Origin: a virus
Virus record (IMG/VR): IMGVR_UViG_3300045988_161343
DNA: 10,829 nt
Strand: one strand, 5' to 3'
The translations under genes and the position numbers were made by a program. The notes under the pieces were generated by a model. That model was not told the origin of the DNA and did no database searches. It saw only the letters and a list, made by a program, of their open reading frames with translations. Shown here piece after piece: positions 2,091 to 10,829 of the stretch (positions within the stretch are counted from its first letter, which is position 1; each line of letters starts with the position of its first letter).

Positions 2091-2235
2091 ATTTGAGCCT
2101 GCCGCGATCCAACGCCGCGGCAGGCATTTTAGATTTTTAGCATTTTCACCAATTTTTTGCCCTAAAATTTGTGCATTCTGCCAGTAGACAAAAATCCTAA
2201 AACATGATATACTTTATAATGTCAAAGGGAAATAA
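2091..2235 (+). repeat. Class-2 intergenic element, copy 1. It has a GC stem-loop (2097-2125), a U-rich trail ATTTTAGATTTTTAGC, an operator-like inverted repeat, and promoter TAGACA (2185-2190), 17-nt spacer, TGa-TATACT (2208-2213)
   Basis: About 85% identical to 6505-6650 and partially to 3896-4020. The stem GCCTGCCGCG/CGCGGCAGGC differs from the other copies but still pairs. Confidence 0.75.
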
Positions 2236-2275
2236 TAATTAAATGTTTAGATAAAATAAGAAAGAGGTAAGCCTA

Positions 2276-3340
2276 ATGACTATTGAAAAGAATAAGAACT
2301 TGTTTATCATCACTCTTGGAGATGGCAGGAAAACCTACTTCAACTTCTCTGATGGCTGTATCTATGGTATGACCGGCAAGAAGGTCAAGGATTTTTGTCC
2401 AGAAGCAAAGAAGATTTTAAAGACATACGCCGATAATGATTTTCTTGCAAGATATTTTGCGGTAAGAAATAAAAATTATGACTATTATTTTAGTAATGTT
2501 AATAAATGGTCTACTGAAATGGTAGAAACTATTTATAGCATTTTCGGCAAAGATTATAATTGGCGTATTCTTGGCGTGATTGCTTATTTCTGTAATTTTA
2601 ATAATTATGCTCTTGATAAGCAGGGCGTCAAGTATTTGAAATTGGGCCTTGCTTCATTGGAAGAACATCAATTTGAAAACCTGTGCCGGAATGAAATTGA
2701 AGTTGCTGTTCGGGCAGTACGTTATTCAAATGTTAATCCGCAGATTTTAAGACTTATGAATAATGTGAAGCCCGCAGTACATGAAACTATCCTGAAAGAC
2801 GCAGATAAAATTTTGTTCCGAATGGAACATGAATGTTGGGAACTGCTTGACGGTTTTTATAGTATGAGTAGAACCGTCGAAAGATACATCACACTCTGCA
2901 ACGAATTGGGCAAAGAAAGAACATACAAAGATATGTTTTTGGCCATTTGTCAGATGGAAATGGAAAAACGTCTTGCTCTTGAAGCAGGAAGCAAAGATTA
3001 TCAGTTAAATGCAAATCTTGCATTTGAAGATAATAATTTTATTGTACTTGTGCCGACGGTAGCAAAAGAATTTGAAGCAGAGGCCGATTATCAGTCAAAC
3101 TGTGTTTATCGTGCCTATTATCCAAAGGTATTGAAGCATGAAACACACATTGTTTTTATTCGGCACAAGACTGAACCGGAAAAACCTTACATCACCTGCG
3201 AAGTAAATAATGATGGTGAAATCGTCCAGTATCTGACACGTTTTAATAATTGTGTTGATTGGAAGACTGATGAATTGGGCTTCCAGTTCCAAGCAATATA
3301 CGCTAATTATCTTTCTGAACATTTTAATAAAAACGCTTGA
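2276..3340 (+). CDS. Hypothetical protein (354 aa), largest gene in the window
   Basis: AGAGG Shine-Dalgarno before ATG 2276 and a clean 1065-nt ORF. I have no confident family assignment. The stop codon TGA (3338-3340) lies inside the TTGACA of the next promoter. Confidence 0.7.
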   Translation: MTIEKNKNLFIITLGDGRKTYFNFSDGCIYGMTGKKVKDFCPEAKKILKTYADNDFLARYFAVRNKNYDYYFSNVNKWSTEMVETIYSIFGKDYNWRILGVIAYFCNFNNYALDKQGVKYLKLGLASLEEHQFENLCRNEIEVAVRAVRYSNVNPQILRLMNNVKPAVHETILKDADKILFRMEHECWELLDGFYSMSRTVERYITLCNELGKERTYKDMFLAICQMEMEKRLALEAGSKDYQLNANLAFEDNNFIVLVPTVAKEFEAEADYQSNCVYRAYYPKVLKHETHIVFIRHKTEPEKPYITCEVNNDGEIVQYLTRFNNCVDWKTDELGFQFQAIYANYLSEHFNKNA

Positions 3341-3365
3341 CAAAATAGCCCTATTATGATATAAT
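3337..3365 (+). promoter_or_regulatory. Class-1 promoter: TTGACA (3337-3342), 17-nt spacer, TATAAT (3360-3365). The -10 box is embedded in a 13-bp-arm palindrome ATAGCCCTATTAT-gat-ATAATAGGGCTAT
   Basis: Consensus hexamers, a perfect palindrome across the -10 box, then the conserved leader ATCAAAAGAAAGGAATTGATAAAAATG. Confidence 0.7.
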
Positions 3366-3395
3366 AGGGCTATCAAAAGAAAGGAATTGATAAAA

Positions 3396-3845
3396 ATGAA
3401 AGCAACTGGCATTATTCGCAGAATTGATGACCTTGGACGTGTAATTATTCCGAAAGACATTCGCCGTAGTTTGAAGATTCATGAGGGTGACCCACTTGAA
3501 ATCTTTATTGAAAATAACTGTGTTTGTTTTCAAAAGTATTCAACACTTGGTTCACTCGCCGAAGAACCTTTGCAGATTGCTATTAAAATGGCGTCAAATT
3601 CTGGTTTGCGTCCTATTGCAATTTATGACACTGATAAAAAATTGCGTGGGATGGAAAATTTTCCGCCCTATGTCTCGAAGACATGGGAAGATGAAGACGA
3701 GCCATTTGAATACAATGCCACTTACGGCGTTTACCCGATTGACGCAGATGGTGACCGCGTGGGGTATGTGGTTTGCGATTCACAAGACATGGGCTGTGAA
3801 GTGATGATGATTGCTCGCTATCTTGGCAGTGTAATTGAGAATTAA
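3396..3845 (+). CDS. AbrB/MazE/SpoVT-fold transcriptional regulator with an extra C-terminal domain of about 100 aa
   Basis: The N-terminus MKATGIIRRIDDLGRVIIPKDIRRSLKIHEGDPLEIFIEN aligns almost residue-for-residue with the Bacillus AbrB N-domain MKSTGIVRKVDELGRVVIPIELRRTLGIAEKDALEIYVDD. The true start is ATG 3396, not the track's TTG 3387. Confidence 0.85.
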   Translation: MKATGIIRRIDDLGRVIIPKDIRRSLKIHEGDPLEIFIENNCVCFQKYSTLGSLAEEPLQIAIKMASNSGLRPIAIYDTDKKLRGMENFPPYVSKTWEDEDEPFEYNATYGVYPIDADGDRVGYVVCDSQDMGCEVMMIARYLGSVIEN

Positions 3846-3849
3846 AAAA

Positions 3850-3895
3850 AATAACACAAGGGACTTATTTTGTCAAGTCCCTTGTGTTATTTTTT
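3850..3895 (+). terminator. Strong terminator (17-bp stem AATAACACAAGGGACTT/AAGTCCCTTGTGTTATT, then TTTTTT). An A-run precedes it, so it is potentially bidirectional
   Basis: Perfect long stem followed by a T-tract, immediately after the AbrB-like gene. Confidence 0.8.
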
Positions 3896-4020
3896 GAGCC
3901 TCGCGGCCACGGTCCAGCCGCGAGGATTTTTAGATTTTTGGCACATTGCACAATTTTTTACTCCAAATTTTGTGCAAAATGACAGTTGACATTTTTCCCG
4001 ATACCTGTTATATTATTGGT
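3896..4020 (+). repeat. Class-2 intergenic element, copy 2. GC stem-loop CCTCGCGGC-CACGGTCCA-GCCGCGAGG (3899-3925), the trail ATTTTTAGATTTTTGGC, inverted repeat TGCACAAtttttt...aaattTTGTGCA (3947-3976), and promoter TTGACA (3986-3991), 17-nt spacer, TGt-TATATT (4009-4014)
   Basis: The upstream half is homologous to copies 1 and 3. The stem sequence differs but pairing is preserved, and the promoter half is diverged. Confidence 0.7.
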
Positions 4021-4045
4021 ACAAGGTTAAGGGAGGGAATACCTA

Positions 4046-4219
4046 ATGACTTCTGACGAAAAACTTAAATACTGCATTGAGCAATGGGTTGAGACATTTG
4101 ATGATTGTGCTTGTTGTCCTCTGATGTTCAAATGCCGAGATGATGAAGATATCCAAGGAATTGACTGCATTGAATGTGGTGAAAAAATTATTGATTGGTT
4201 AAAGGAGAATGAACAATGA
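4046..4219 (+). CDS. Small Cys-rich (zinc-ribbon-like) protein, 57 aa, missing from the ORF track (below its length cutoff)
   Basis: Strong Shine-Dalgarno GGGAGGG lies 8 nt before ATG 4046. The translation is MTSDEKLKYCIEQWVETFDDCACCPLMFKCRDDEDIQGIDCIECGEKIIDWLKENEQ, with 7 Cys including a CxxC pair. The stop TGA overlaps the next start in an ATGA junction at 4216-4219. Confidence 0.55.
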   Translation: MTSDEKLKYCIEQWVETFDDCACCPLMFKCRDDEDIQGIDCIECGEKIIDWLKENEQ

Positions 4220-4629
4220 AAAATCTGTACTGGAAACGCATTTACATGAAAATGAATGATGGTCAAGAGCCTATTCTGAATTGGAACCCACAACTTGTTT
4301 ATCGCCCCGAACCGCCTGAAAATGAAGTATTGACAATTAAAAACACAACAGACCTTGCAGTAGCTATTTGCAGTAACTATATCAATGGTTCTATCAAGCG
4401 TGGAACTTTTGACAGAAGAATCAAAAAATTCCATATCGAGAATATGAGATACTGGAAAGGTGAAGAATACAAGCCCGAAAAAATCAGTTTCCCTGTTTCA
4501 CGTGAAACAATTTATAAGCCAGTTGATTATGACATGAGTTTCAAGAAGTTGTCGGGAGAATTGTCCGCAGAAGATTTTATCCGTTGGATGAAAGACAATG
4601 GCATGAACACTTGCCCGATGATTAAATAA
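4216..4629 (+). CDS. Hypothetical protein (137 aa)
   Basis: Translationally coupled to the upstream small ORF through the ATGA overlap, and preceded by AAGGAGAA. I recognise no motif. Confidence 0.6.
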   Translation: MKNLYWKRIYMKMNDGQEPILNWNPQLVYRPEPPENEVLTIKNTTDLAVAICSNYINGSIKRGTFDRRIKKFHIENMRYWKGEEYKPEKISFPVSRETIYKPVDYDMSFKKLSGELSAEDFIRWMKDNGMNTCPMIK

Positions 4630-4637
4630 ATTAGGGG

Positions 4638-4666
4638 TTGACAAACAACCCCTAATGTGATACAAT
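4638..4666 (+). promoter_or_regulatory. Class-1 promoter: TTGACA (4638-4643), 17-nt spacer, TGtGa-TACAAT (4661-4666). The -35 box sits in the perfect 11-bp hairpin ATTAGGGGTTG-acaaa-CAACCCCTAAT
   Basis: Consensus hexamers, an inverted repeat around the -35 box, and the conserved leader ATCAAAGGAAAGGAATTGATAAAAAATG. Confidence 0.7.
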
Positions 4667-4697
4667 AGATTTATCAAAGGAAAGGAATTGATAAAAA

Positions 4698-5009
4698 ATG
4701 ATTATGGACGCCGCTATTGTTAAAGCAATGAATTTGCAGGACTTTCACAATTATATAAACAACAGGAAGCCCGAAGAATTACAGACCCTAATTGCATTAG
4801 CCAAGGAAAGAATTAACCAGTTAGACCAAGAGAAAGAAGCAAAGTATATGGCCGCAATCATTAAGTCTGTTCAGGATTATCTGGATAATGTTGGAGATTT
4901 GACATTCCATGTTGAGTACGAAGACGAAGATGGTCATGACGCAGAAACTGACATCATCGTAGACAATCTGAATCCGCCTGCTGGTGGCAATGGAGTTATT
5001 TACATTTAA
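4698..5009 (+). CDS. Hypothetical acidic protein (103 aa)
   Basis: ATG 4698 directly follows the conserved leader. No family recognised. Confidence 0.6.
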   Translation: MIMDAAIVKAMNLQDFHNYINNRKPEELQTLIALAKERINQLDQEKEAKYMAAIIKSVQDYLDNVGDLTFHVEYEDEDGHDAETDIIVDNLNPPAGGNGVIYI

Positions 5010-5021
5010 GGAGTGATACAA

Positions 5022-5339
5022 ATGCTTACAAATCCGGCTTTTTGGGCAGTTTTTGGAGTTGTTCTCTTTTTCATCTGTTTGATCTTGATGTTTATCCCTG
5101 ACACTTGGCGTGGCAGATTGGCAGTTTTTGGCCTATGTTGTGTGATTGCCTTTACTTTTGCAAGTCTAATGTATTTCACTGCTACCAATAGCCAAGAACG
5201 TTGGAATGATGGTAGACATGCAGAAGATAGTGGCCGCTATTGGTTAACAAGCGTAACTGATTACAAAGGAATCAAAACATATTATTACACTTGTGAAGAT
5301 TGCGGGCATACTGAACAATTTAGTCAGATAATGAGATAA
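5022..5339 (+). CDS. Small membrane protein (two predicted TM helices) with a C-terminal CxxC motif
   Basis: AAGGAG Shine-Dalgarno lies 8 nt before ATG 5022. The track's GTG at 5013 is less likely. Hydrophobic segments AFWAVFGVVLFFICLILMFI and LAVFGLCCVIAFTFASLMYF are followed by YTCEDCGH. Confidence 0.6.
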   Translation: MLTNPAFWAVFGVVLFFICLILMFIPDTWRGRLAVFGLCCVIAFTFASLMYFTATNSQERWNDGRHAEDSGRYWLTSVTDYKGIKTYYYTCEDCGHTEQFSQIMR

Positions 5340-5343
5340 TAAA

Positions 5344-5418
5344 CAAGCCGGTTGGGAAAAAAAATTATAAAAAAAAATTCCCAACCGGCTTGACAAATTA
5401 AAAAAAATTTGATATAAT
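5344..5418 (+). promoter_or_regulatory. Hairpin (13-bp stem CAAGCCGGTTGGG/CCCAACCGGCTTG, 23-nt A-rich loop) fused to a class-1 promoter: TTGACA (5390-5395), 17-nt spacer, TGa-TATAAT (5413-5418)
   Basis: The 3' arm of the stem ends in the TTG of the -35 box. The conserved leader CCAAAAGGAAAGGAATCAATAAACATG follows. Confidence 0.65.
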
Positions 5419-5449
5419 AATAGTACCAAAAGGAAAGGAATCAATAAAC

Positions 5450-5860
5450 ATGACTGAAATTACTACCTATGAGTGCGACTTCTGCGGGCAGGTGTTTGAT
5501 GATGAAGAAGAATGTATTCATCATGAATGGAAATGCAGATATGAAGATTTATGTAAATCTGAAAATTGCGAGCCGCTGAAACTGTTCAACCTTGAAGGCA
5601 AGGAAATCAATGGTTTCGACTATCCTAAATGTGATGAAATTGGGGCGGTGGAAATTCATTCTTACCTTCAAGCACAATTCATCAATGATTATTTTGATGA
5701 AATGGGTTATGAAGTTCCCATTAAAATTGTCATGGGGCTGATTGACCACTATGGTCTGTGGTATTATGATCCTGAATACCACTATGGCAAGTGGCGGTCT
5801 TATGAAGAAGTTCTTGAAGATATTCAGGAAATTGGCAAGAAATTTAATCAAGGGGCTTGA
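5450..5860 (+). CDS. Small protein with an N-terminal C2H2-like zinc finger (136 aa)
   Basis: YECDFCGQVFDDEEECIHHEWKC shows Cx2C...HH spacing. The stop TGA (5858-5860) lies inside the TTGACA of the next promoter. Confidence 0.6.
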   Translation: MTEITTYECDFCGQVFDDEEECIHHEWKCRYEDLCKSENCEPLKLFNLEGKEINGFDYPKCDEIGAVEIHSYLQAQFINDYFDEMGYEVPIKIVMGLIDHYGLWYYDPEYHYGKWRSYEEVLEDIQEIGKKFNQGA

Positions 5861-5885
5861 CAAGCCCCTTGACCTGTGATATAAT
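5857..5885 (+). promoter_or_regulatory. Class-1 promoter: TTGACA (5857-5862), 17-nt spacer, TGtGa-TATAAT (5880-5885). The -35 box sits within the palindrome CAAGGGGCTTG-a-CAAGCCCCTTG
   Basis: The upstream context AATTTAATCAAGGGG is the same as at 1003-1017. The leader ATCAAAAGGAAAGGAAAGGAAATGATACAATG follows. Confidence 0.7.
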
Positions 5886-5920
5886 TGATTTATCAAAAGG
5901 AAAGGAAAGGAAATGATACA

Positions 5921-6196
5921 ATGAATTATCAGGTTATTTTCATGGACAATGAAGGAACTGTTCAGGCGGGCATTTGGAATCAGGACAGGGATGAAATTAT
6001 CTGCGGCTGCTGTGGTGCAACAATCGAATCGGGCGATTTTGTCCTGCTTCACATCTATGATGAATGGTTGAACATCACCGATGAAATCTGTGGGGATGAT
6101 GGAGATATTCTTCATGAGATTGAAGAAAAGGTTGACCGCCTGACAACTTCTGAAATTGAAGCAATTCTTGATGGAGAGAAGGATTTTAACGAATGA
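5921..6196 (+). CDS. Small Cys-rich protein (91 aa)
   Basis: ATG 5921 follows the conserved leader. The track's TTG at 5885 lies inside the promoter. Motifs are ICGCCGATIESGD and ICGDDGD. Confidence 0.55.
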   Translation: MNYQVIFMDNEGTVQAGIWNQDRDEIICGCCGATIESGDFVLLHIYDEWLNITDEICGDDGDILHEIEEKVDRLTTSEIEAILDGEKDFNE

Positions 6197-6501
6197 GTTT
6201 TTTCTTGTCTGTTATGTATGCTTGGCTAGCTGATAATAACATCAGCTATGCCCTCTATGGAGCAGATGGCTCTAAACTTGACAGCCGTTATGCCAGCAGA
6301 CTTCCTGACCAATTTATTCCATCAGAAACAAATGGATATTCTTATCCATTTCCCTATTGGATTTGTTATCCAATAGTCATAGATGGTGAATACTGCGGTT
6401 GCTGGTGTTTCATAGATGATGACAACTGTTCGAGACATGACAATTTTGTTCGAGTAGTTGAAATGACAGAAATTGCCTGCGGCATGGAAGCAGACTCCTA
6501 A
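6193..6501 (+). CDS. Small Cys-rich protein (102 aa)
   Basis: Joined to the previous gene by an ATGA overlap at 6193-6196. Motifs are YCGCWCF...DNCSRH...IACG. Confidence 0.55.
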   Translation: MSFFLSVMYAWLADNNISYALYGADGSKLDSRYASRLPDQFIPSETNGYSYPFPYWICYPIVIDGEYCGCWCFIDDDNCSRHDNFVRVVEMTEIACGMEADS

Positions 6502-6504
6502 AAA

Positions 6505-6650
6505 AAATGGGCGGTTCATTTGAGCCGCCCGATGTCCTGCACACCGGGCGGCATTTTAATTTTTTAGCATTTTGCACAATTTTTTCATGCAAATTTTGTG
6601 CATCTTGCCAATAGACAAAAATCCTGAAATGTGATATACTCTATAATGTC
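6505..6650 (+). repeat. Class-2 intergenic element, copy 3. Stem-loops at 6509-6530 and 6524-6552 share the CCGCCC segment. It also has the trail ATTTTAATTTTTTAGC, inverted repeat TGCACAA (6572-6578) / TTGTGCA (6596-6602), and promoter TAGACA (6612-6617), 17-nt spacer, TGa-TATACT (6635-6640)
   Basis: About 85% identical to copy 1 across roughly 110 bp, with the same promoter and a different, compensating stem sequence. Confidence 0.75.
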
Positions 6651-6739
6651 AAGAGAGGATAGCGATTAAAAGTGCTTGGTATCATTAGCCGGGCTACACA
6701 ACTTCCTAGGTTCGTGTGTAAAAAAAATAAAATTCCCTC

Positions 6740-6768
6740 TTGACAAACAACACCTGATGTGTTATAAT
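6740..6768 (+). promoter_or_regulatory. Class-1 promoter: TTGACA (6740-6745), 17-nt spacer, TGt-TATAAT (6763-6768), then the leader CCAGAAAGGAATTGATAAATATG
   Basis: Consensus hexamers and the conserved RBS leader before gene A1. It lies about 120 bp downstream of the class-2 promoter, so the two are tandem promoters. Confidence 0.65.
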
Positions 6769-6819
6769 TGAGTCAACAAGTGAAGGAAACACTTAAAAAC
6801 CAGAAAGGAATTGATAAAT

Positions 6820-7206
6820 ATGGAAAAGGTTAAAGCCCCCACCCGCAAGGAAATGTTCACTACTGTTTCTGACTTCCTCGCCCAGCATGATGCAGACACT
6901 GACCTGATTGATTTTGTCAATCACCAGATTGAGCTTCTGGACAACAAGAAGGAAAACAAGAAGCAGGCCAAGGAGCAGGAAGAAAACGCCGCCTATTCTG
7001 ATGCAATCTATGAGCAGATGGCATTCGAGCGTAAGTACAGCGTCGCAGAGCTGATGAAGGAGCTTCCGATGGTCAATGATTGGAACACCAACCATGAGAC
7101 CGAACTGTCGGTTCAGAAGCTCGCAAGTCTGTTGAAGCCGCTGGTCGATGGTGGCAAGGTCATTAAGACCACCGAGAAACGCAGAGTGTTCTACACCAAG
7201 GCGTGA
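6820..7206 (+). CDS. Hypothetical protein A1 (128 aa), paralog of 9099-9476, with a possible winged-helix-like C-terminus
   Basis: ATG 6820 follows the conserved leader. The C-terminal 75 aa are conserved with A2 (YS[VI]AEL[MI]KELP...QK[LM]A.LLK.LV..G.VIKTTEKRRV[FY]YTKA). GC is about 48% and C-ending codons are preferred, unlike upstream genes. Confidence 0.7.
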   Translation: MEKVKAPTRKEMFTTVSDFLAQHDADTDLIDFVNHQIELLDNKKENKKQAKEQEENAAYSDAIYEQMAFERKYSVAELMKELPMVNDWNTNHETELSVQKLASLLKPLVDGGKVIKTTEKRRVFYTKA

Positions 7207-7213
7207 TAAACCA

Positions 7214-7237
7214 TGGGGCGGAGAAATCCGCCCCACT
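7214..7237 (+). other. Intercistronic hairpin GGGGCGGA-gaaa-TCCGCCCC between A1 and B1
   Basis: An 8-bp GC stem with a GNRA-like loop and no following U-tract. It may be an attenuator or RNA-stability element. Confidence 0.5.
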
Positions 7238-7252
7238 AATTAAGGAGAGCCT

Positions 7253-7651
7253 ATGAGAGAGTTGACTGAAAAGGAATGGGCAAAAGTCGATAATCTTGTT
7301 GACAAGCTGGAATGTTCGATTGATGAAGCAGTTGACATTCTGGACGCCGACAAAGCTATTGACCGTAATCAAAAGGTTGATTTTGATTTAAGTCCAGAAG
7401 AACATAAGCAAGCAATGAAACTTGCTAATGTCAAAGAGCATGCGGTCAAGAAAAGCAATGTCTACCGCCCGCGTAAGCCTAATGAAATTAAAGGTGCAAT
7501 TATTGCCAGTTTGTCAAAATATTTGACAGAAACGGCAGATTTTGAAGTGATTGATGAAGAAGTCACAAACAAAGAGCGGACAATTATGTTTACAAGTGGC
7601 GGCAACCGCTACGAATTGACCCTGATACAAAAGAGAGCATCAAAAACTTAA
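7253..7651 (+). CDS. Hypothetical protein B1 (132 aa), paralog of 9569-9931
   Basis: AAGGAGAG Shine-Dalgarno 6 nt before ATG 7253. Shared blocks with B2 are SI[DE]EA..[IV]L[DE].DK.IDR and [NI][RK]Y.LTL[IM]. Confidence 0.7.
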   Translation: MRELTEKEWAKVDNLVDKLECSIDEAVDILDADKAIDRNQKVDFDLSPEEHKQAMKLANVKEHAVKKSNVYRPRKPNEIKGAIIASLSKYLTETADFEVIDEEVTNKERTIMFTSGGNRYELTLIQKRASKT

Positions 7652-7653
7652 AG

Positions 7654-7689
7654 AAAATGCTGGAAAATGAAAATTTTTCCAGCATTTTT
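7654..7689 (+). terminator. Rho-independent terminator (14-bp stem AAAATGCTGGAAAA/TTTTCCAGCATTTT, then TTTTTG)
   Basis: Perfect stem plus T-run directly after the B1 stop. Confidence 0.8.
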
Positions 7690-7735
7690 GTATAATTTAA
7701 TGAATTTTTAAGGATTTTTTGTGTATTTTTATCTA

Positions 7736-7800
7736 TTGACATTTGGGCTGCCCGGCCACGACCTAGCCGGGCAGAATTTCCAATATTTACCAGTTTTACC
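7736..7800 (+). repeat. Class-2-like element, degenerate copy 4. GC stem-loop CTGCCCGGC-CACGACCTA-GCCGGGCAG (7748-7774), then the ACCAATTTTTT segment
   Basis: The stem covaries with the other copies. Its loop CACGACCTA resembles the copy-2 loop CACGGTCCA. The downstream ACCAATTTTTT matches copy 1. Confidence 0.5.
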
Positions 7801-7920
7801 AATTTTTTTACCAAAATCTAGCTTCATTTGATTAAAGTATTAAATCCTTAAAGTGCCGCACTTTACCACATTAAAGTGTTAAAGTGTGCATAAATATTCA
7901 TTGAAAATGAATAAATATTC
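7786..7920 (+). repeat. Iteron cluster. TTTACCA repeats at 7786, 7795, 7807 and 7862. TTAAAGTG repeats at 7832, 7848, 7871 and 7879, plus an inverted copy forming the palindrome TAAAGTG-ccg-CACTTTA (7849-7865). ATAAATATTC direct repeats flank the hairpin TATTCATT-gaa-AATGAATA (7891-7920)
   Basis: Read directly from the sequence: several short direct repeats at roughly helical spacing in an AT-rich stretch. This is a candidate replication origin or complex operator. Confidence 0.55.
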
Positions 7921-7923
7921 TTC

Positions 7924-7952
7924 TTGACATTTTGGGCAAGGTGTGATAATAT
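7924..7952 (+). promoter_or_regulatory. Promoter: TTGACA (7924-7929), 17-nt spacer, TAATAT (7947-7952) with upstream TGTG. A roughly 60-nt leader follows, with the AAAGGATGG Shine-Dalgarno site
   Basis: Consensus -35 box and an A/T-rich extended -10 box directly upstream of the exonuclease gene. Confidence 0.6.
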
Positions 7953-8014: not shown

Positions 8015-8872
8015 ATGACTAAACTTGATAAGCGTCGAAAGTATTACCTGATTCTGGATTGTGAAACTGCGACACTTCCTTATGCCGCAAAGTTTTCCGC
8101 AGATATGAAGAAGAATGTCGCAATCGCCAAGCCGCTGATTTATGATTTGGGATGGCAGATTGTGGATATTCGTGGCAAGGTCTATAAGCGTGCGTCCTAC
8201 CTCATTTCTGAAATTTTCAGTGTTCCCGCAGTTTTCAATACTGCATATTATGCAAGTAAGCGTCCGATTTATCTTGAACGTTTGAAGAATAAGGAAATCA
8301 CGCTTGCAGATTGGAACACGGCTGTTGCAGAACTGATTGAAGATTTGGACGCTGTTGAAGCCGTCGGAGCATATAACAGTATGTTCGACTTCAAAAAGGC
8401 TATTCCATTCACTGAACTTTATGTTTCCAAGCTGTATTCGCCGGATTTCTTTGAATGGGAAGTATATCAGAATAAACGATGTGAAGCAATCGCCCACGGA
8501 AGTAAGCCCCATTCGCAGACAGAATTTGAACCTGATGTTTTCCGCTTCCATGGCAAGACGTATCCGCTATTTGACTTGTGGGGTTTGTCTTGTGAACATC
8601 TGTTGAATAATCCCGACTATAAGCAGATGTGCTATGATAATGAGTGGAGAACGGCAAGTGGTAAATACTATCCGACTAATGCGGAAAAGGCATTTGCCTA
8701 TTGTTTCCAGCAGGAAGATTTTGAAGAAGCCCATACTGCAATCGAGGACGCAATTATTGAGTCTATGCTGTTCGCCCTTATTGGAGAAAAGACCAAGCAC
8801 AAGTTTGAGATGGGTATTGAATATTTTCCCTACAAAAAGTTGGGAAGATTTGACAGTGATTGGGAGCTGTAA
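8015..8872 (+). CDS. DEDDh-family (DnaQ/RNase T/DexA-like) 3'-5' exonuclease
   Basis: Exo I YLILDCETATLP carries the D-x-E pair. Exo II GAYNSMFDFKKA matches the [HY]N..FD motif. Exo III EEAHTAIEDAIIE matches the H-x-A-x-x-D-A motif, and its His makes this the DEDDh subtype. A long insert of about 120 aa lies between motifs II and III. Confidence 0.8.
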   Translation: MTKLDKRRKYYLILDCETATLPYAAKFSADMKKNVAIAKPLIYDLGWQIVDIRGKVYKRASYLISEIFSVPAVFNTAYYASKRPIYLERLKNKEITLADWNTAVAELIEDLDAVEAVGAYNSMFDFKKAIPFTELYVSKLYSPDFFEWEVYQNKRCEAIAHGSKPHSQTEFEPDVFRFHGKTYPLFDLWGLSCEHLLNNPDYKQMCYDNEWRTASGKYYPTNAEKAFAYCFQQEDFEEAHTAIEDAIIESMLFALIGEKTKHKFEMGIEYFPYKKLGRFDSDWEL

Positions 8873-8998: not shown

Positions 8999-9027
8999 TT
9001 GACAAATCGAAAGGTTTGTGATACAAT
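8999..9027 (+). promoter_or_regulatory. Class-1 promoter: TTGACA (8999-9004), 17-nt spacer, TGtGa-TACAAT (9022-9027). The leader contains the palindromes TGTTCC-aagagag-GGAACA and GGTCGCGACC, then GAAAGGAATTGATAATTATG
   Basis: Consensus hexamers and the conserved RBS leader before gene A2. Confidence 0.65.
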
Positions 9028-9098
9028 ATAATTGTTCCAAGAGAGGAACACAAAATAAATAAGGGTCGCGACCTACCGCTAGAAAGGAATTGATAATT

Positions 9099-9476
9099 AT
9101 GGAAAAGAAGATTACCTATGCCCAGGCCCTGAACACCGTCCTGAACAATGAGAACATCGTCCTTGCGTCTGATGTTCGTGAGAAGCTGGAAGCTCTGCTT
9201 GTCTCTGTTTCCAAGAAGTCCGGCGAAAAGAAGGATACTGCACAGCAGGTCGAGAACGCCATGATGGTGGAGCGGATTTATCAGGAGATGGAAGCCAACC
9301 GGACTTACTCCATTGCCGAACTGATTAAGGAACTACCGGTTGTGGCTGATTTCAATGCCAACCATGAGAACGATATGTCCACGCAGAAAATGGCGAACCT
9401 GCTCAAGACCCTTGTGGAAGATGGCAGAGTGATTAAGACCACTGAAAAGCGGCGTGTCTACTACACCAAGGCATAA
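9099..9476 (+). CDS. Hypothetical protein A2 (126 aa), paralog of 6820-7206
   Basis: ATG 9099 follows the conserved leader. The track's start 9090 is a TTG inside the leader. The C-terminus ...LLKTLVEDGRVIKTTEKRRVYYTKA is nearly identical to A1. GC is high relative to the window. Confidence 0.7.
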   Translation: MEKKITYAQALNTVLNNENIVLASDVREKLEALLVSVSKKSGEKKDTAQQVENAMMVERIYQEMEANRTYSIAELIKELPVVADFNANHENDMSTQKMANLLKTLVEDGRVIKTTEKRRVYYTKA

Positions 9477-9568: not shown

Positions 9569-9931
9569 ATGTCAATGACCGTTGAAAAGTTGGCAAATTC
9601 GCTTAAAATCTCTATTGAAGAAGCCAAACAAGTTTTGGAAATGGACAAGCGAATTGATAGGGGCGAAAAGCTGTTTGAGCTGCCGCCGGAGCTTGAAGCA
9701 GGGGCAAAAAAGGCAAGACGTGCTGATCGGAAGAAAGTGGAAAATGTAAAACGGGAACGCAAGCCTGATGAAGATAAAAGGGAGTTAATCCAGTATTTGG
9801 AAAGTTCCTTAGAAGATGCCTACCCCGATTTGGATTTGGGCAATATTACCATTACAAATCCAGAACGAGAAATGGAATTTACTTACAATGGAATTAAATA
9901 CCGGTTGACCCTGATGCGTCCAAGGAAATAG
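9569..9931 (+). CDS. Hypothetical protein B2 (120 aa), paralog of 7253-7651
   Basis: AGGACGG Shine-Dalgarno before ATG 9569. ATG 9575 is an alternative start. Conserved blocks are shared with B1. A basic central region (KKARRADRKKVENVKRERKPDEDKR) suggests nucleic-acid binding. Confidence 0.65.
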   Translation: MSMTVEKLANSLKISIEEAKQVLEMDKRIDRGEKLFELPPELEAGAKKARRADRKKVENVKRERKPDEDKRELIQYLESSLEDAYPDLDLGNITITNPEREMEFTYNGIKYRLTLMRPRK

Positions 9932-9962
9932 ATGGAAGATGGAAACATCTTCCATCCTTTTT
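9931..9962 (+). terminator. Rho-independent terminator (GATGGAAGATG-gaaa-CATCTTCCATC, then CTTTTTGG)
   Basis: An 11-bp perfect stem plus T-run overlapping the B2 stop codon. Confidence 0.8.
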
Positions 9963-10110
9963 GGAATCATAATTGGAAAATATTGGAACAGATGGTAATT
10001 TCAGCCGGTCGTCACTGGAAGTGATGACCGGAATTCTAGAAAAAACCCTCATATGGCAATTTTTTGTTCAATCTAGCAGCCTCTCATATGGCGCATGTTT
10101 TTCCCGAAAC

Positions 10111-10720: not shown

Positions 10721-10829
10721 ATGTCGGTTGATATGGAGAATAGGGGTACCACTGATACAATAGGGGCACAGCACTACTCCACTTTAATACAATTTTTATC
10801 AATTTTACTCCACTTTAATACAATTTTTA
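10721..10829 (+). CDS. Possible 5' end of a gene running off the window. Its hydrophobic tail overlaps the tandem repeat
   Basis: Good Shine-Dalgarno site (GGGTGGTGA, 8 nt) and an open frame to the window end (MSVDMENRGTTDTIGAQHYSTLIQFLSILLHFNTIF...). The embedded 31-bp-period repeat is not a multiple of 3, which argues against coding. Confidence 0.3.
   Translation, partial: MSVDMENRGTTDTIGAQHYSTLIQFLSILLHFNTIF
10775..10829 (+). repeat. Tandem direct repeat TACTCCACTTTAATACAATTTTTA (two copies, period 31 bp), truncated by the window end
   Basis: An exact 24-nt repeat at 10775-10798 and 10806-10829. An AATAGGGG dyad lies at 10739 and 10759. Confidence 0.6.

Follow-up and report, generated by a model that had tools for sequence, protein, structure and literature searches.

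A recurrent hairpin, dyad and promoter element at the junctions of shuffled gene cassettes in a group of related phages

Why should a phage repeat, between one small gene and the next, an element made of a GC-rich hairpin whose stem differs every time, an A/T-rich spacer with an inverted repeat and a predicted strong promoter? The question is raised by a stretch of 10,829 nucleotides (nt) from IMG/VR virus record IMGVR_UViG_3300045988_161343 (the window, by which the whole of this stretch is meant), which forms part of a 184,981-bp metagenome contig (ENA ERZ27250463 k119_68296) and whose position 1 is position 7726 of the locus L001. Comparison of gene order with close relatives identifies the copies of the element as the junctions at which gene cassettes are gained, lost and swapped; this is its best-documented property, and one absent from the original prediction, an earlier note on this DNA that had singled out the element. 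The reading we favour, with a rough probability of 0.55, is that the repeat would be a portable boundary cassette of an early hyperplastic region, with its hairpin half serving as a barrier and with shuffling of the kind described for the promoter-early stem-loops (PeSLs) of T4-type phages.

The window carries five copies of a 27-nt GC-rich hairpin (H2) with conserved flanks TTTSAG and AATTT, and a sixth hairpin lies ~500 bp upstream of it (L001 7197). Along the gene strand, from 5' to 3', the order of parts is a terminator (T1, where present), TTTSAG, H2, (A)AATTT, a spacer containing the dyad, and the promoter. Copies 1-3 are full modules, with hairpin, 60-nt A/T-rich spacer, dyad TTGCACAA-N16-TTGTGCAA and extended -10 promoter; copies 4 and 5 consist of the hairpin without the dyad, and their promoters lie 149 nt and 79 nt downstream, respectively. 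The three to four recurrences originally counted are thus exceeded, the partial fourth copy being as it was described, and the four stem sequences then quoted are exact as written. Other parts of that description need narrowing: where TTTGAGCC was given, copy 4 reads TTTGGGCT; the conserved U-rich trail is a property of copies 1-3 and not of copies beyond them; and the palindrome is perfect only in copy 2, whereas copy 3 departs from it by a single base, copy 1 has a degenerate left half (TTTCACCA) and copies 4 and 5 lack it. A repeat search recovers a 95-nt family (2117-2211, 3918-4012 and 6544-6638) and a 159-nt pair (2088-2246 and 6515-6673, 75% identity) with a partial fourth copy at 7767-7817, and an nhmmer profile made from the four copies retrieves all of them with E values of 1e-22 to 1e-40. 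The four-way alignment agrees; by repeat search and alignment, the paralogous copies clearly share descent. The parts of the element in the window are these.

2062-2089 (hairpin 2062-2084), + strand: T1 of copy 1, canonical intrinsic terminator of the upstream gene, GGGAATCCA-gattt-TGGATTCCC plus TTTTT (terminator scan, RNA fold, score +16.6)
2098-2124, + strand: H2 of copy 1, CCTGCCGCG-ATCCAACGC-CGCGGCAGG (covariance-model match at L001 9814-9863, fold, covariation), flanked on the same strand by TTTGAG (2092-2097) and CATTTTAGATTTTT
2144-2176: dyad of copy 1, in the spacer 2125-2184, with TTTCACCA (2144-2151) as its degenerate left half and TTGTGCAT (2169-2176) as its right half
2185-2213, + strand: promoter of copy 1, TAGACA-17-TATACT with upstream TG, 60 nt from hairpin end to -35, ahead of the PcfJ-like gene 2276-3340
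3847-3894, + strand: T1 of copy 2, a 21-bp bidirectional terminator after the AbrB-like gene (terminator scan, repeat search, fold, score)
3899-3925, + strand: H2 of copy 2, CCTCGCGGC-CACGGTCCA-GCCGCGAGG (covariance model, fold)
3946-3977: dyad of copy 2, TTGCACAA (3946-3953), 16 nt, TTGTGCAA (3970-3977), the halves being perfect reverse complements
3986-4014, + strand: promoter of copy 2, TTGACA-17-TATATT with upstream TG, ahead of genes for proteins of 57 and 137 amino acids (aa)
6508-6531, + strand: upstream segment of copy 3, TGGGCGGTTC-attt-GAGCCGCCCG, which pairs with the left arm of H2 and excludes H2 (fold)
6525-6551, + strand: H2 of copy 3, CCGCCCG-ATGTCCTGCACAC-CGGGCGG, sole candidate terminator for the gene 6193-6501
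6572-6603: dyad of copy 3, TTGCACAA (6572-6579), 16 nt, TTGTGCAT (6596-6603)
6612-6640, + strand: promoter of copy 3, TAGACA-17-TATACT with upstream TG, with no cassette after it, the next promoter being at 6740
7653-7689, + strand: T1 of copy 4, terminator after the 132-aa gene (terminator scan, fold)
7715-7741, + strand: half-element remnant, a degenerate right dyad half and a TTGACA -35 without a -10, abutting H2 of copy 4 (read from the sequence; better-kept versions stand in L005, L014 and L006)
7748-7774, + strand: H2 of copy 4, CTGCCCGGC-CACGACCTA-GCCGGGCAG, with the U-poor tail AATTTCCAAT (covariance model, fold, score)
7924-7952, + strand: promoter of the exonuclease-like gene, 149 nt past H2 of copy 4
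9931-9956, + strand: T1 of copy 5, terminator after the 120-aa gene (terminator scan, fold)
10005-10031, + strand: H2 of copy 5, CCGGTCGTCAC-TGGAA-GTGATGACCGG, with one G-T pair and a tail, AATTCTAGAAAAAA, that is not terminator-like (covariance-model match at L001 17721-17770)
10111-10139, + strand: promoter-like TTGCAA-17-TATAAT, 79 nt past H2 of copy 5 and upstream of a 131-aa gene

What happens at these places in other genomes? When the synteny of L001 is compared with that of seven close relatives, the PcfJ cassette is found after copy 1 in L001 and L015, after a copy of the copy-3 type in L012, and not at all in five relatives. The AbrB cassette lies behind the PcfJ gene in some relatives and behind the 137-aa gene in others. 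Its position is altered in L009, L010 and L012, and the sampled loci of L011, L013 and L014 show no homolog; the 57-aa gene is variably present. A given hairpin sequence remains with the gene upstream of it while the gene downstream varies; the stem of copy 2 is found at another position, upstream of the exonuclease gene, in L013. Two hybrid elements in L009 resolve the exchange to the base: at L009:3937 the hairpin and left spacer of copy 1 are joined to the right spacer and promoter of copy 2, and at L009:5648 the left half of copy 2 is joined to a right half like that of copy 3, both crossing over at the CAATTTTTT centre, in the A/T-rich spacer. Recombination between copies is what we infer from such arrangements. 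The ~100 nt after the copy 3 promoter (6641-6739) contain no convincing gene, only a possible 23-codon GTG open reading frame (ORF), and ARAGORN finds no tRNA or tRNA-like structure after this promoter in eight loci; because the PcfJ cassette sits there in L012, this slot seems to have been emptied of its cassette in the window.

Could the hairpins themselves be the sites of exchange? As in the attC sites of integrons, structure is kept while sequence varies, the flanking bases are conserved and successive sites enclose cassettes. Both hybrid crossovers, however, are in the A/T-rich spacer and not at the hairpin, the stems have neither extrahelical bases nor RYYYAAC / GTTRRRY core sites, the cassettes bring their own promoters, and no integrase is encoded within the 21-kb locus. 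Hairpins with conserved flanks also recall the early promoters served by the virion RNA polymerase of phage N4, which have a 5-7-bp stem, a 3-nt loop and conserved loop bases, with transcription starting just downstream. The stems of H2, by contrast, measure 7-12 bp and its loops 3-13 nt, both of variable sequence, and a host-type promoter follows every copy. An attC-like or an N4-like role is disfavoured to the point of being highly improbable.

The element recurs well beyond the window: 94 copies were collected across relatives. The nhmmer profile contributed 50 distinct copies, length- and end-anchored extraction 36 distinct hairpin forms, and a covariance model built on 24 hand-anchored copies and searched against 1.2 Mb of related loci 72 matches, among which are 63 distinct sequences and 56 distinct hairpins. 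Every one of these matches is on the gene strand, and in further loci, too, the copies within any one locus share a strand; among the matches listed, the same architecture appears in more clades, e.g. in L080 (nine copies) and L162 (eight copies). A fixed-pattern scan of IMG/VR, run to completion, yielded 29 matches with a bimodal pairing score. Sixteen were in newly fetched loci, where nine pair at 8-9 of 9 positions and seven at only 5-6 (six positions are free in this pattern, giving a chance pairing of p = 2.4e-4), and the remaining matches fell in loci already known to bear the hairpin. L001 has six copies in 10.5 kb of small ORFs and none in the remainder of the 21-kb locus. Since every pattern match on the related IMG/VR contigs of 100-190 kb falls inside the exonuclease-anchored locus, where that locus is known, the elements would occupy one zone of 10-15 kb rather than the whole genome.

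What, then, is being conserved in a hairpin whose sequence is not? The original prediction took compensatory change in the stems as a sign of selection on the structure, and this view is borne out. Among the 24 hand-anchored copies, 99.1% of the alignment cells pair, as against 31-44% when the columns are slid, and 72 cells carry double changes. For the 72 matches of the covariance model (63 distinct), 98.9% of 567 cells pair versus 33-43% with a slid partner column, there are 198 double-change cells, and not one of 500 shuffles reaches the observed covariation score. The 56 distinct stems, at nine positions each, contain 495 Watson-Crick, 5 G-T and 4 A-C combinations. Nearly all of the 50 unique nhmmer matches contain a GC-rich hairpin, and since these were retrieved through similarity of the flanks, the covariation is not an artefact of having selected for hairpins. 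The hairpin is under selection for pairing, and any stem sequence is allowed provided that it pairs. Rfam has no match to the hairpins even at E < 1, its sole match within the element being a sub-threshold microRNA model over the palindromic spacer. The change of stem sequence from each copy to the next led us to reject several roles: mimic of a clustered regularly interspaced short palindromic repeat (CRISPR), Chi-site decoy, restriction-site decoy and primosome assembly site.

If pairing is what matters, what might it be for? On the favoured reading, the hairpin half would close off the upstream unit at its 3' end as a barrier, stopping or processing RNA polymerase that has escaped T1, so that the next promoter would start clean; the dyad would be the site for a dimeric regulator or for the C-terminal domain of the RNA polymerase alpha subunit (alpha-CTD), and the shared 100-150 bp would supply the homology for cassette exchange without breaking expression signals. 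Like intrinsic terminators, tandem ones included, H2 is a GC-rich stem-loop on the transcribed (sense) strand after a stop codon, covaries without sequence conservation and has U-rich tails in copies 1-3 of the window, where its terminator discriminant is borderline (-8 to -10). It differs from them in that most copies have no usable U-tract, in its fixed length, in the near absence of G-U pairs and in a pyrimidine-rich 5' arm, neighbouring T1 hairpins having purine-rich 5' arms and long U-runs. A minus-strand small RNA was also considered and set aside, as A-runs upstream of T1 occur only in some copies and no convincing minus-strand promoter could be made out by eye.

Stem and U-trail together had been proposed as a terminator that splits the region into transcription units, and of this proposal the location between units and the strong downstream promoter stand, but the terminator finds little support. 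A separate, canonical and discriminant-positive T1 directly precedes at least half of the copies (47/93, by a strict adjacency test that misses some), and in the window it is present before copies 1, 2, 4 and 5 (2062-2084, 3847-3894, 7653-7689 and 9931-9956). Copy 3 has no separate T1, which leaves H2, with the tail AUUUUAAUUUUUU, as sole candidate; its alternative pairing shows covariation in L014:8355, and L024:6995 shares the design. As an observation in its own right, 6508-6551 offers a three-segment alternative pairing with an attenuator-like layout, its GGGCGG-containing segment lying 7 nt past the stop of the 102-aa gene, and on the minus strand 6508-6531 has the perfect look of a terminator.

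A number of results weigh against the favoured reading, most of them against the barrier. Synteny alone would fit homologous and site-specific mechanisms alike. The terminator discriminant of H2, calculated by a d'Aubenton-Carafa-type formula with modern energy parameters and approximate in its values, is negative in 88 of the 94 copies and positive in 6, with no improvement at copies whose T1 is weak. In most copies the stem is followed by (A)AATTT and then by a mixture of bases; the median tail score is 1.37 versus 3.42 in the adjacent terminators, and the minimum free energy (MFE) RNA fold of copy 3 prefers the competing hairpin with 6508-6531 over H2. H2 keeps a length of 26-28 nt (exactly 27 in 82 of 94), whether stem and loop are split 7/13 or 12/3, and tolerates ~1% G-U pairs and an equal share of A-C, in contrast to ~12% G-U and lengths of 13-38 nt in the adjacent ordinary terminators. 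Fixed length and scarcity of G-U together point to a stricter constraint, possibly one that acts on the DNA or is set by a protein. Judged on these sequence features, the hairpin is mostly not a terminator, at least not a canonical one.

Might it rather be a structure-specific site, as DNA cruciform, DNA hairpin or RNA hairpin, for a dedicated phage protein that marks or controls the early units, through shut-off or activation of early promoters or as a roadblock to read-through? Fixed length, near-perfect pairing (~99% Watson-Crick, with G-T about as frequent as A-C), a poor U-tail, the near-invariant pairs C1-G27, C6-G22 and G7-C21 and a set of discrete spacings before the -35 would fit such a hairpin better than an ordinary terminator. 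So would what is seen in sister phages, whose sequence-specific palindrome in the corresponding slot would be its counterpart. Relatives that have no H2 carry, per 20-kb locus, 17-30 exact copies of a clade-specific 19-bp perfect palindrome, examples being TTAGACTA-N3-TAGTCTAA, TTAGACGT-N3-ACGTCTAA, TTAGATGT-N3-ACATCTAA and TGGGACGT-N3-ACGTCCCA, in the same slot as H2, between each gene's terminator and the next promoter (L017, at 1900-10935, L019, L022, L023, L025-L027, L030, L033, L043, L048, L050, L053, L058, L065 and L067). The arms of these palindromes covary between clades and are invariant within a genome, near-miss copies being almost absent. In the loci checked, H2 and the 19-bp palindrome never co-occur; no comparable recurrent exact palindrome was found in eight H2 loci (including L001, L015, L016 and L028), two of which, L018 and L024, repeat only a short 15-bp palindrome, GGAACAA-N-TTGTTCC, in eight copies each. 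A related TTGTTCC...GGAACA inverted repeat is seen in a 5' leader of the window (9034-9051). In a tree of the exonuclease, the H2 loci form three groups interleaved with palindrome groups and are not monophyletic.

Each of the two cis types tracks a protein family of its own. In the window the proteins concerned, and their neighbours, are the following.

7253-7651, + strand: g17, 132-aa protein of unknown function, candidate trans factor by co-occurrence alone
9569-9931, + strand: g20, 120-aa paralog of g17 (39% identity)
6820-7206 and 9099-9476: g16 and g19, winged-helix-like, cassette partners of g17 and g20, respectively

The g17/g20 family is present in 12/12 H2 loci versus 0/55 others, and also in several independently found H2 loci; a second family of unknown function is present in 53/55 palindrome loci and 0/12 H2 loci, and in L017 it stands directly upstream of the exonuclease gene, which is the slot of g17 in the window. 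No detectable homology links the two families (hhalign probability 0.4%), and neither they nor g16/g19 have a Pfam, PHROG, PDB or fold match. The exonuclease-like gene is flanked by a duplicated two-gene cassette that encodes a ~128-aa winged-helix-like protein and a 120-132-aa protein. As a hairpin-specific factor g16/g19 was rejected, being homologous to a winged-helix-like family of H2-less phages (hhalign 97%); the predicted structure of g16 (pLDDT, the predicted local distance difference test score, 54) is too poor to use.

How far does this go? The co-occurrence of g17/g20 with H2 could be explained by mere physical linkage in one swapped module and is a lead rather than a demonstration. 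The g17 model (pLDDT 80) gives no significant fold match and no recognised nucleic-acid-binding domain, the only sequence hint being a weak similarity to eL38 (E 0.04-0.18). A non-palindromic 9-nt centre disfavours cruciform extrusion, and H2 moves together with the gene before it, which is how a 3'-end signal would behave. On balance a hairpin read by a dedicated protein is a tentative alternative, somewhat unlikely. More specific, and a little less likely again, is the idea that the slot between terminator and promoter is a docking site for a phage factor in two unrelated versions: in most clades one that goes with the sequence-specific 19-bp palindrome and the second protein family, and in the clade of the window and several others one that reads a 27-nt hairpin of arbitrary sequence by its structure, with the g17/g20 family. 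If true, the hairpin would supply the cis half of a regulator, or roadblock, that acts on early units by reading structure and has not been described before. Dispersed sets of phage operators, such as the stoperators of mycobacteriophage L5, the C1 operators of P1 and the p4 sites of phi29, offer a point of comparison. Like them, the present element provides many intergenic, promoter-adjoining sites per genome, with a dyad upstream of the -35, and this class readily accommodates the 19-bp palindromes of the sister phages. H2, in contrast, has no known cognate protein and varies in sequence within a single genome, and hence is not a conventional sequence-specific operator.

The other half of the element consists of the spacer, the dyad and the promoter. 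A promoter was expected after the stem, identical in copies 1 and 3, and both hold: TAGACA-17-TATACT with upstream TG stands at 2185-2213 and at 6612-6640. The predicted promoters of copies 1-3 match the consensus at 10-12 of 12 positions and have the upstream TG, as do those in relatives, and would be of a strong sigma-70/sigma-A type with an extended -10; their spacer contains a conserved TCCCGAAA-like motif. The hairpin-to-(-35) distance is 59-62 nt in 36 distinct copies, and the other distances are discrete (81-84, 94-95, 103-106, 118, 130 and 149). Between clades the spacer retains about half identity, yet its length of 59-62 nt is kept despite homopolymer runs. Within it the dyad halves begin 40 and 16 nt before the -35, so that the dyad is centred about 60 nt before the start site; at least 6 of the 8 positions of a half match in 86% of copies for the left half and 97% for the right, against ~11% in shuffles. 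The dyad pattern as such has 0.00 expected occurrences in shuffled sequence. Across copies, the arms are 61% complementary versus 24-47% when slid, with no clear covariation. The operator-like inverted repeat of the original prediction is thus upheld in its fixed position upstream of the -35 and weakened in its symmetry, and these features would fit either a protein site or an UP-like element. A further observation concerns the first ~20 transcribed bases after many element promoters, which read (A/T)TTGTCAAG(A/G)GGG and are kept across distant clades (2214-2235, 6641-6662, L016:5229, L024:6995, L028:7015, L092:6050 and L143:3265); this motif may be a leader or a ribosome-binding signal.

Would a simpler account suffice, in which H2 is a back-up intrinsic terminator and the rest an ordinary promoter with UP-element-like DNA, the two being duplicated along with the cassettes? 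The dyad would then be a by-product of T-tract/A-tract symmetry, and common descent would account for the fixed lengths. With this agree the modest 61% complementarity of the dyad arms, the right half, which falls where the distal subsite of an UP element would sit upstream of the promoter, the plain relatedness of the paralogous copies, the U-rich tails of copies 1-3 and the lack of any other terminator at copy 3. It does not explain why a hairpin should be kept in 88 copies that score as non-terminators, with G-U pairs strongly depleted relative to the adjacent real terminators, why the length of the spacer should persist while its sequence diverged to about half identity, or why H2 and an invariant palindrome should exclude each other. 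We therefore consider this account quite unlikely.

The AbrB-like protein (3396-3845) had been put forward as a shared regulator, and it could in principle co-regulate all copies with the dyad as its operator. It has a SpoVT/AbrB-type N-terminal domain (PF04014, E 1e-8), AbrB-like genes are present in 12/23 H2 loci versus 7/53 others, and TGGCA-like motifs flank the spacer, reminiscent of the TGGNA preference of Bacillus subtilis AbrB. The gene itself, however, is mobile cargo: it was not found in the sampled loci L011, L013, L014, L028, L080 and L162, which have complete elements, and AbrB genes also occur in hairpin-less phages. Beyond this enrichment nothing ties the protein to the dyad. 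As it was made, the proposal finds little support, and an AbrB operator is very doubtful.

Does the favoured reading, a portable boundary cassette, have a precedent? PeSL cassettes of T4-type phages are mobile regulatory cassettes (Arbiol et al. 2010, PMC2839356; Comeau et al. 2014, PMC4122927), for which mini-circles and terminator activity have been shown experimentally (PMC2839356, PMC4122927) and 'half PeSLs' described (PMC4122927). Literature searches for other repeats that combine a hairpin with a promoter turned up nothing relevant. Several features are shared with PeSLs: both kinds of element join a stem-loop and an AT-rich upstream region to a strong sigma-70-type promoter, both occur in many copies between the small genes of a hyperplastic early region, the copies flank indels, replacements and displacements between close relatives, crossovers fall in the AT-rich or promoter part, and degraded half-elements are found. 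The present element differs in being two to three times longer, with a dyad at about -60, and in having its stem-loop 60 nt before the -35, separate from and usually additional to the real terminator; its stem has a fixed 27-nt frame and covaries freely, in contrast to the loose GGGG...CCCC-type consensus of PeSL stems. Moreover, mini-circles and terminator activity are experimental facts there, and the element described here is known from sequence only. The phage lineage is unrelated as well. GenBank phages give zero nucleotide-level matches to the window, and protein links lead only to Enterococcus phages and uncultured gut phages, among them the 285-aa protein at 8015-8872, with 29% identity to an annotated exodeoxyribonuclease of Enterococcus phages of ~140 kb; the element is for these reasons best regarded as an analogue and not a homologue of PeSLs. 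The bins of metagenome-assembled genomes (MAGs) that hold matching contigs are mostly Clostridia, including Acutalibacteraceae and Oscillospiraceae, and the source, a large uncultivated gut phage, probably infects Clostridia. The genes of the window all lie on the + strand, are small and mostly without assigned function, those recognised being PcfJ-like, SpoVT/AbrB-like, a nucleoside deoxyribosyltransferase fragment and HAD-like.

What is the significance of such an arrangement? Evolution by mobile regulatory cassettes, so far described in T4-type coliphages and vibriophages, would be extended to abundant and unrelated large gut and rumen phages, with junctions at base level at which anti-defence-like cargo (PcfJ-like, AbrB-like and small ORFans) appears to be swapped with expression signals intact. 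The hairpin, with 94 copies and 56 distinct stems among the 72 scored, is a well-sampled structure under strict selection that fits the terminator model poorly, and it offers a natural contrast with the invariant palindrome of the sister phages, each having a candidate partner family of unknown fold. For the annotation of these phages, the hairpin covariance model flags the limits of early transcription units.

Some further features of the region deserve mention. A class of compact junctions (1009-1045, 3337-3385, 4630-4666, 5346-5418, 5846-5885, 6740-6768 and 8999-9027) has a terminator-like hairpin that overlaps or encloses the -35 or -10 of TTGACA-17-TGnTATAAT, followed by a conserved leader and ribosome-binding site, AAAGGAAAGGAATTGATAAAAATG; it is the -35 that is overlapped at 1009-1045, 4630-4666 and 5846-5885. 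In form, these junctions are a closer match to T4-type PeSLs than is the long element. Before the promoter of the exonuclease gene, 7830-7920 contains a TAAAGTG / CACTTTA array with TTAAAGT four times and the inverted repeats TAAAGTGCCGCACTTTA and ATATTCATTGAAAATGAATAAATATT; TAAAGYG arrays of a similar kind are found in L150 and L162, and the array is probably a separate operator system. Finally, a tandem array of three 31-bp repeats, TACTCCACTTTAATACAATTTTTATCAATTT, with very A/T-rich DNA after it, extends in an iteron-like manner from 10775-10829 on to L001 18500-18640. The equivalent place in L017 (12050-12320) has GTTAACTTATAAGTT repeats, and many related contigs end 3.5-7 kb past the exonuclease gene; this repeat region may be a replication origin or a genome terminus.

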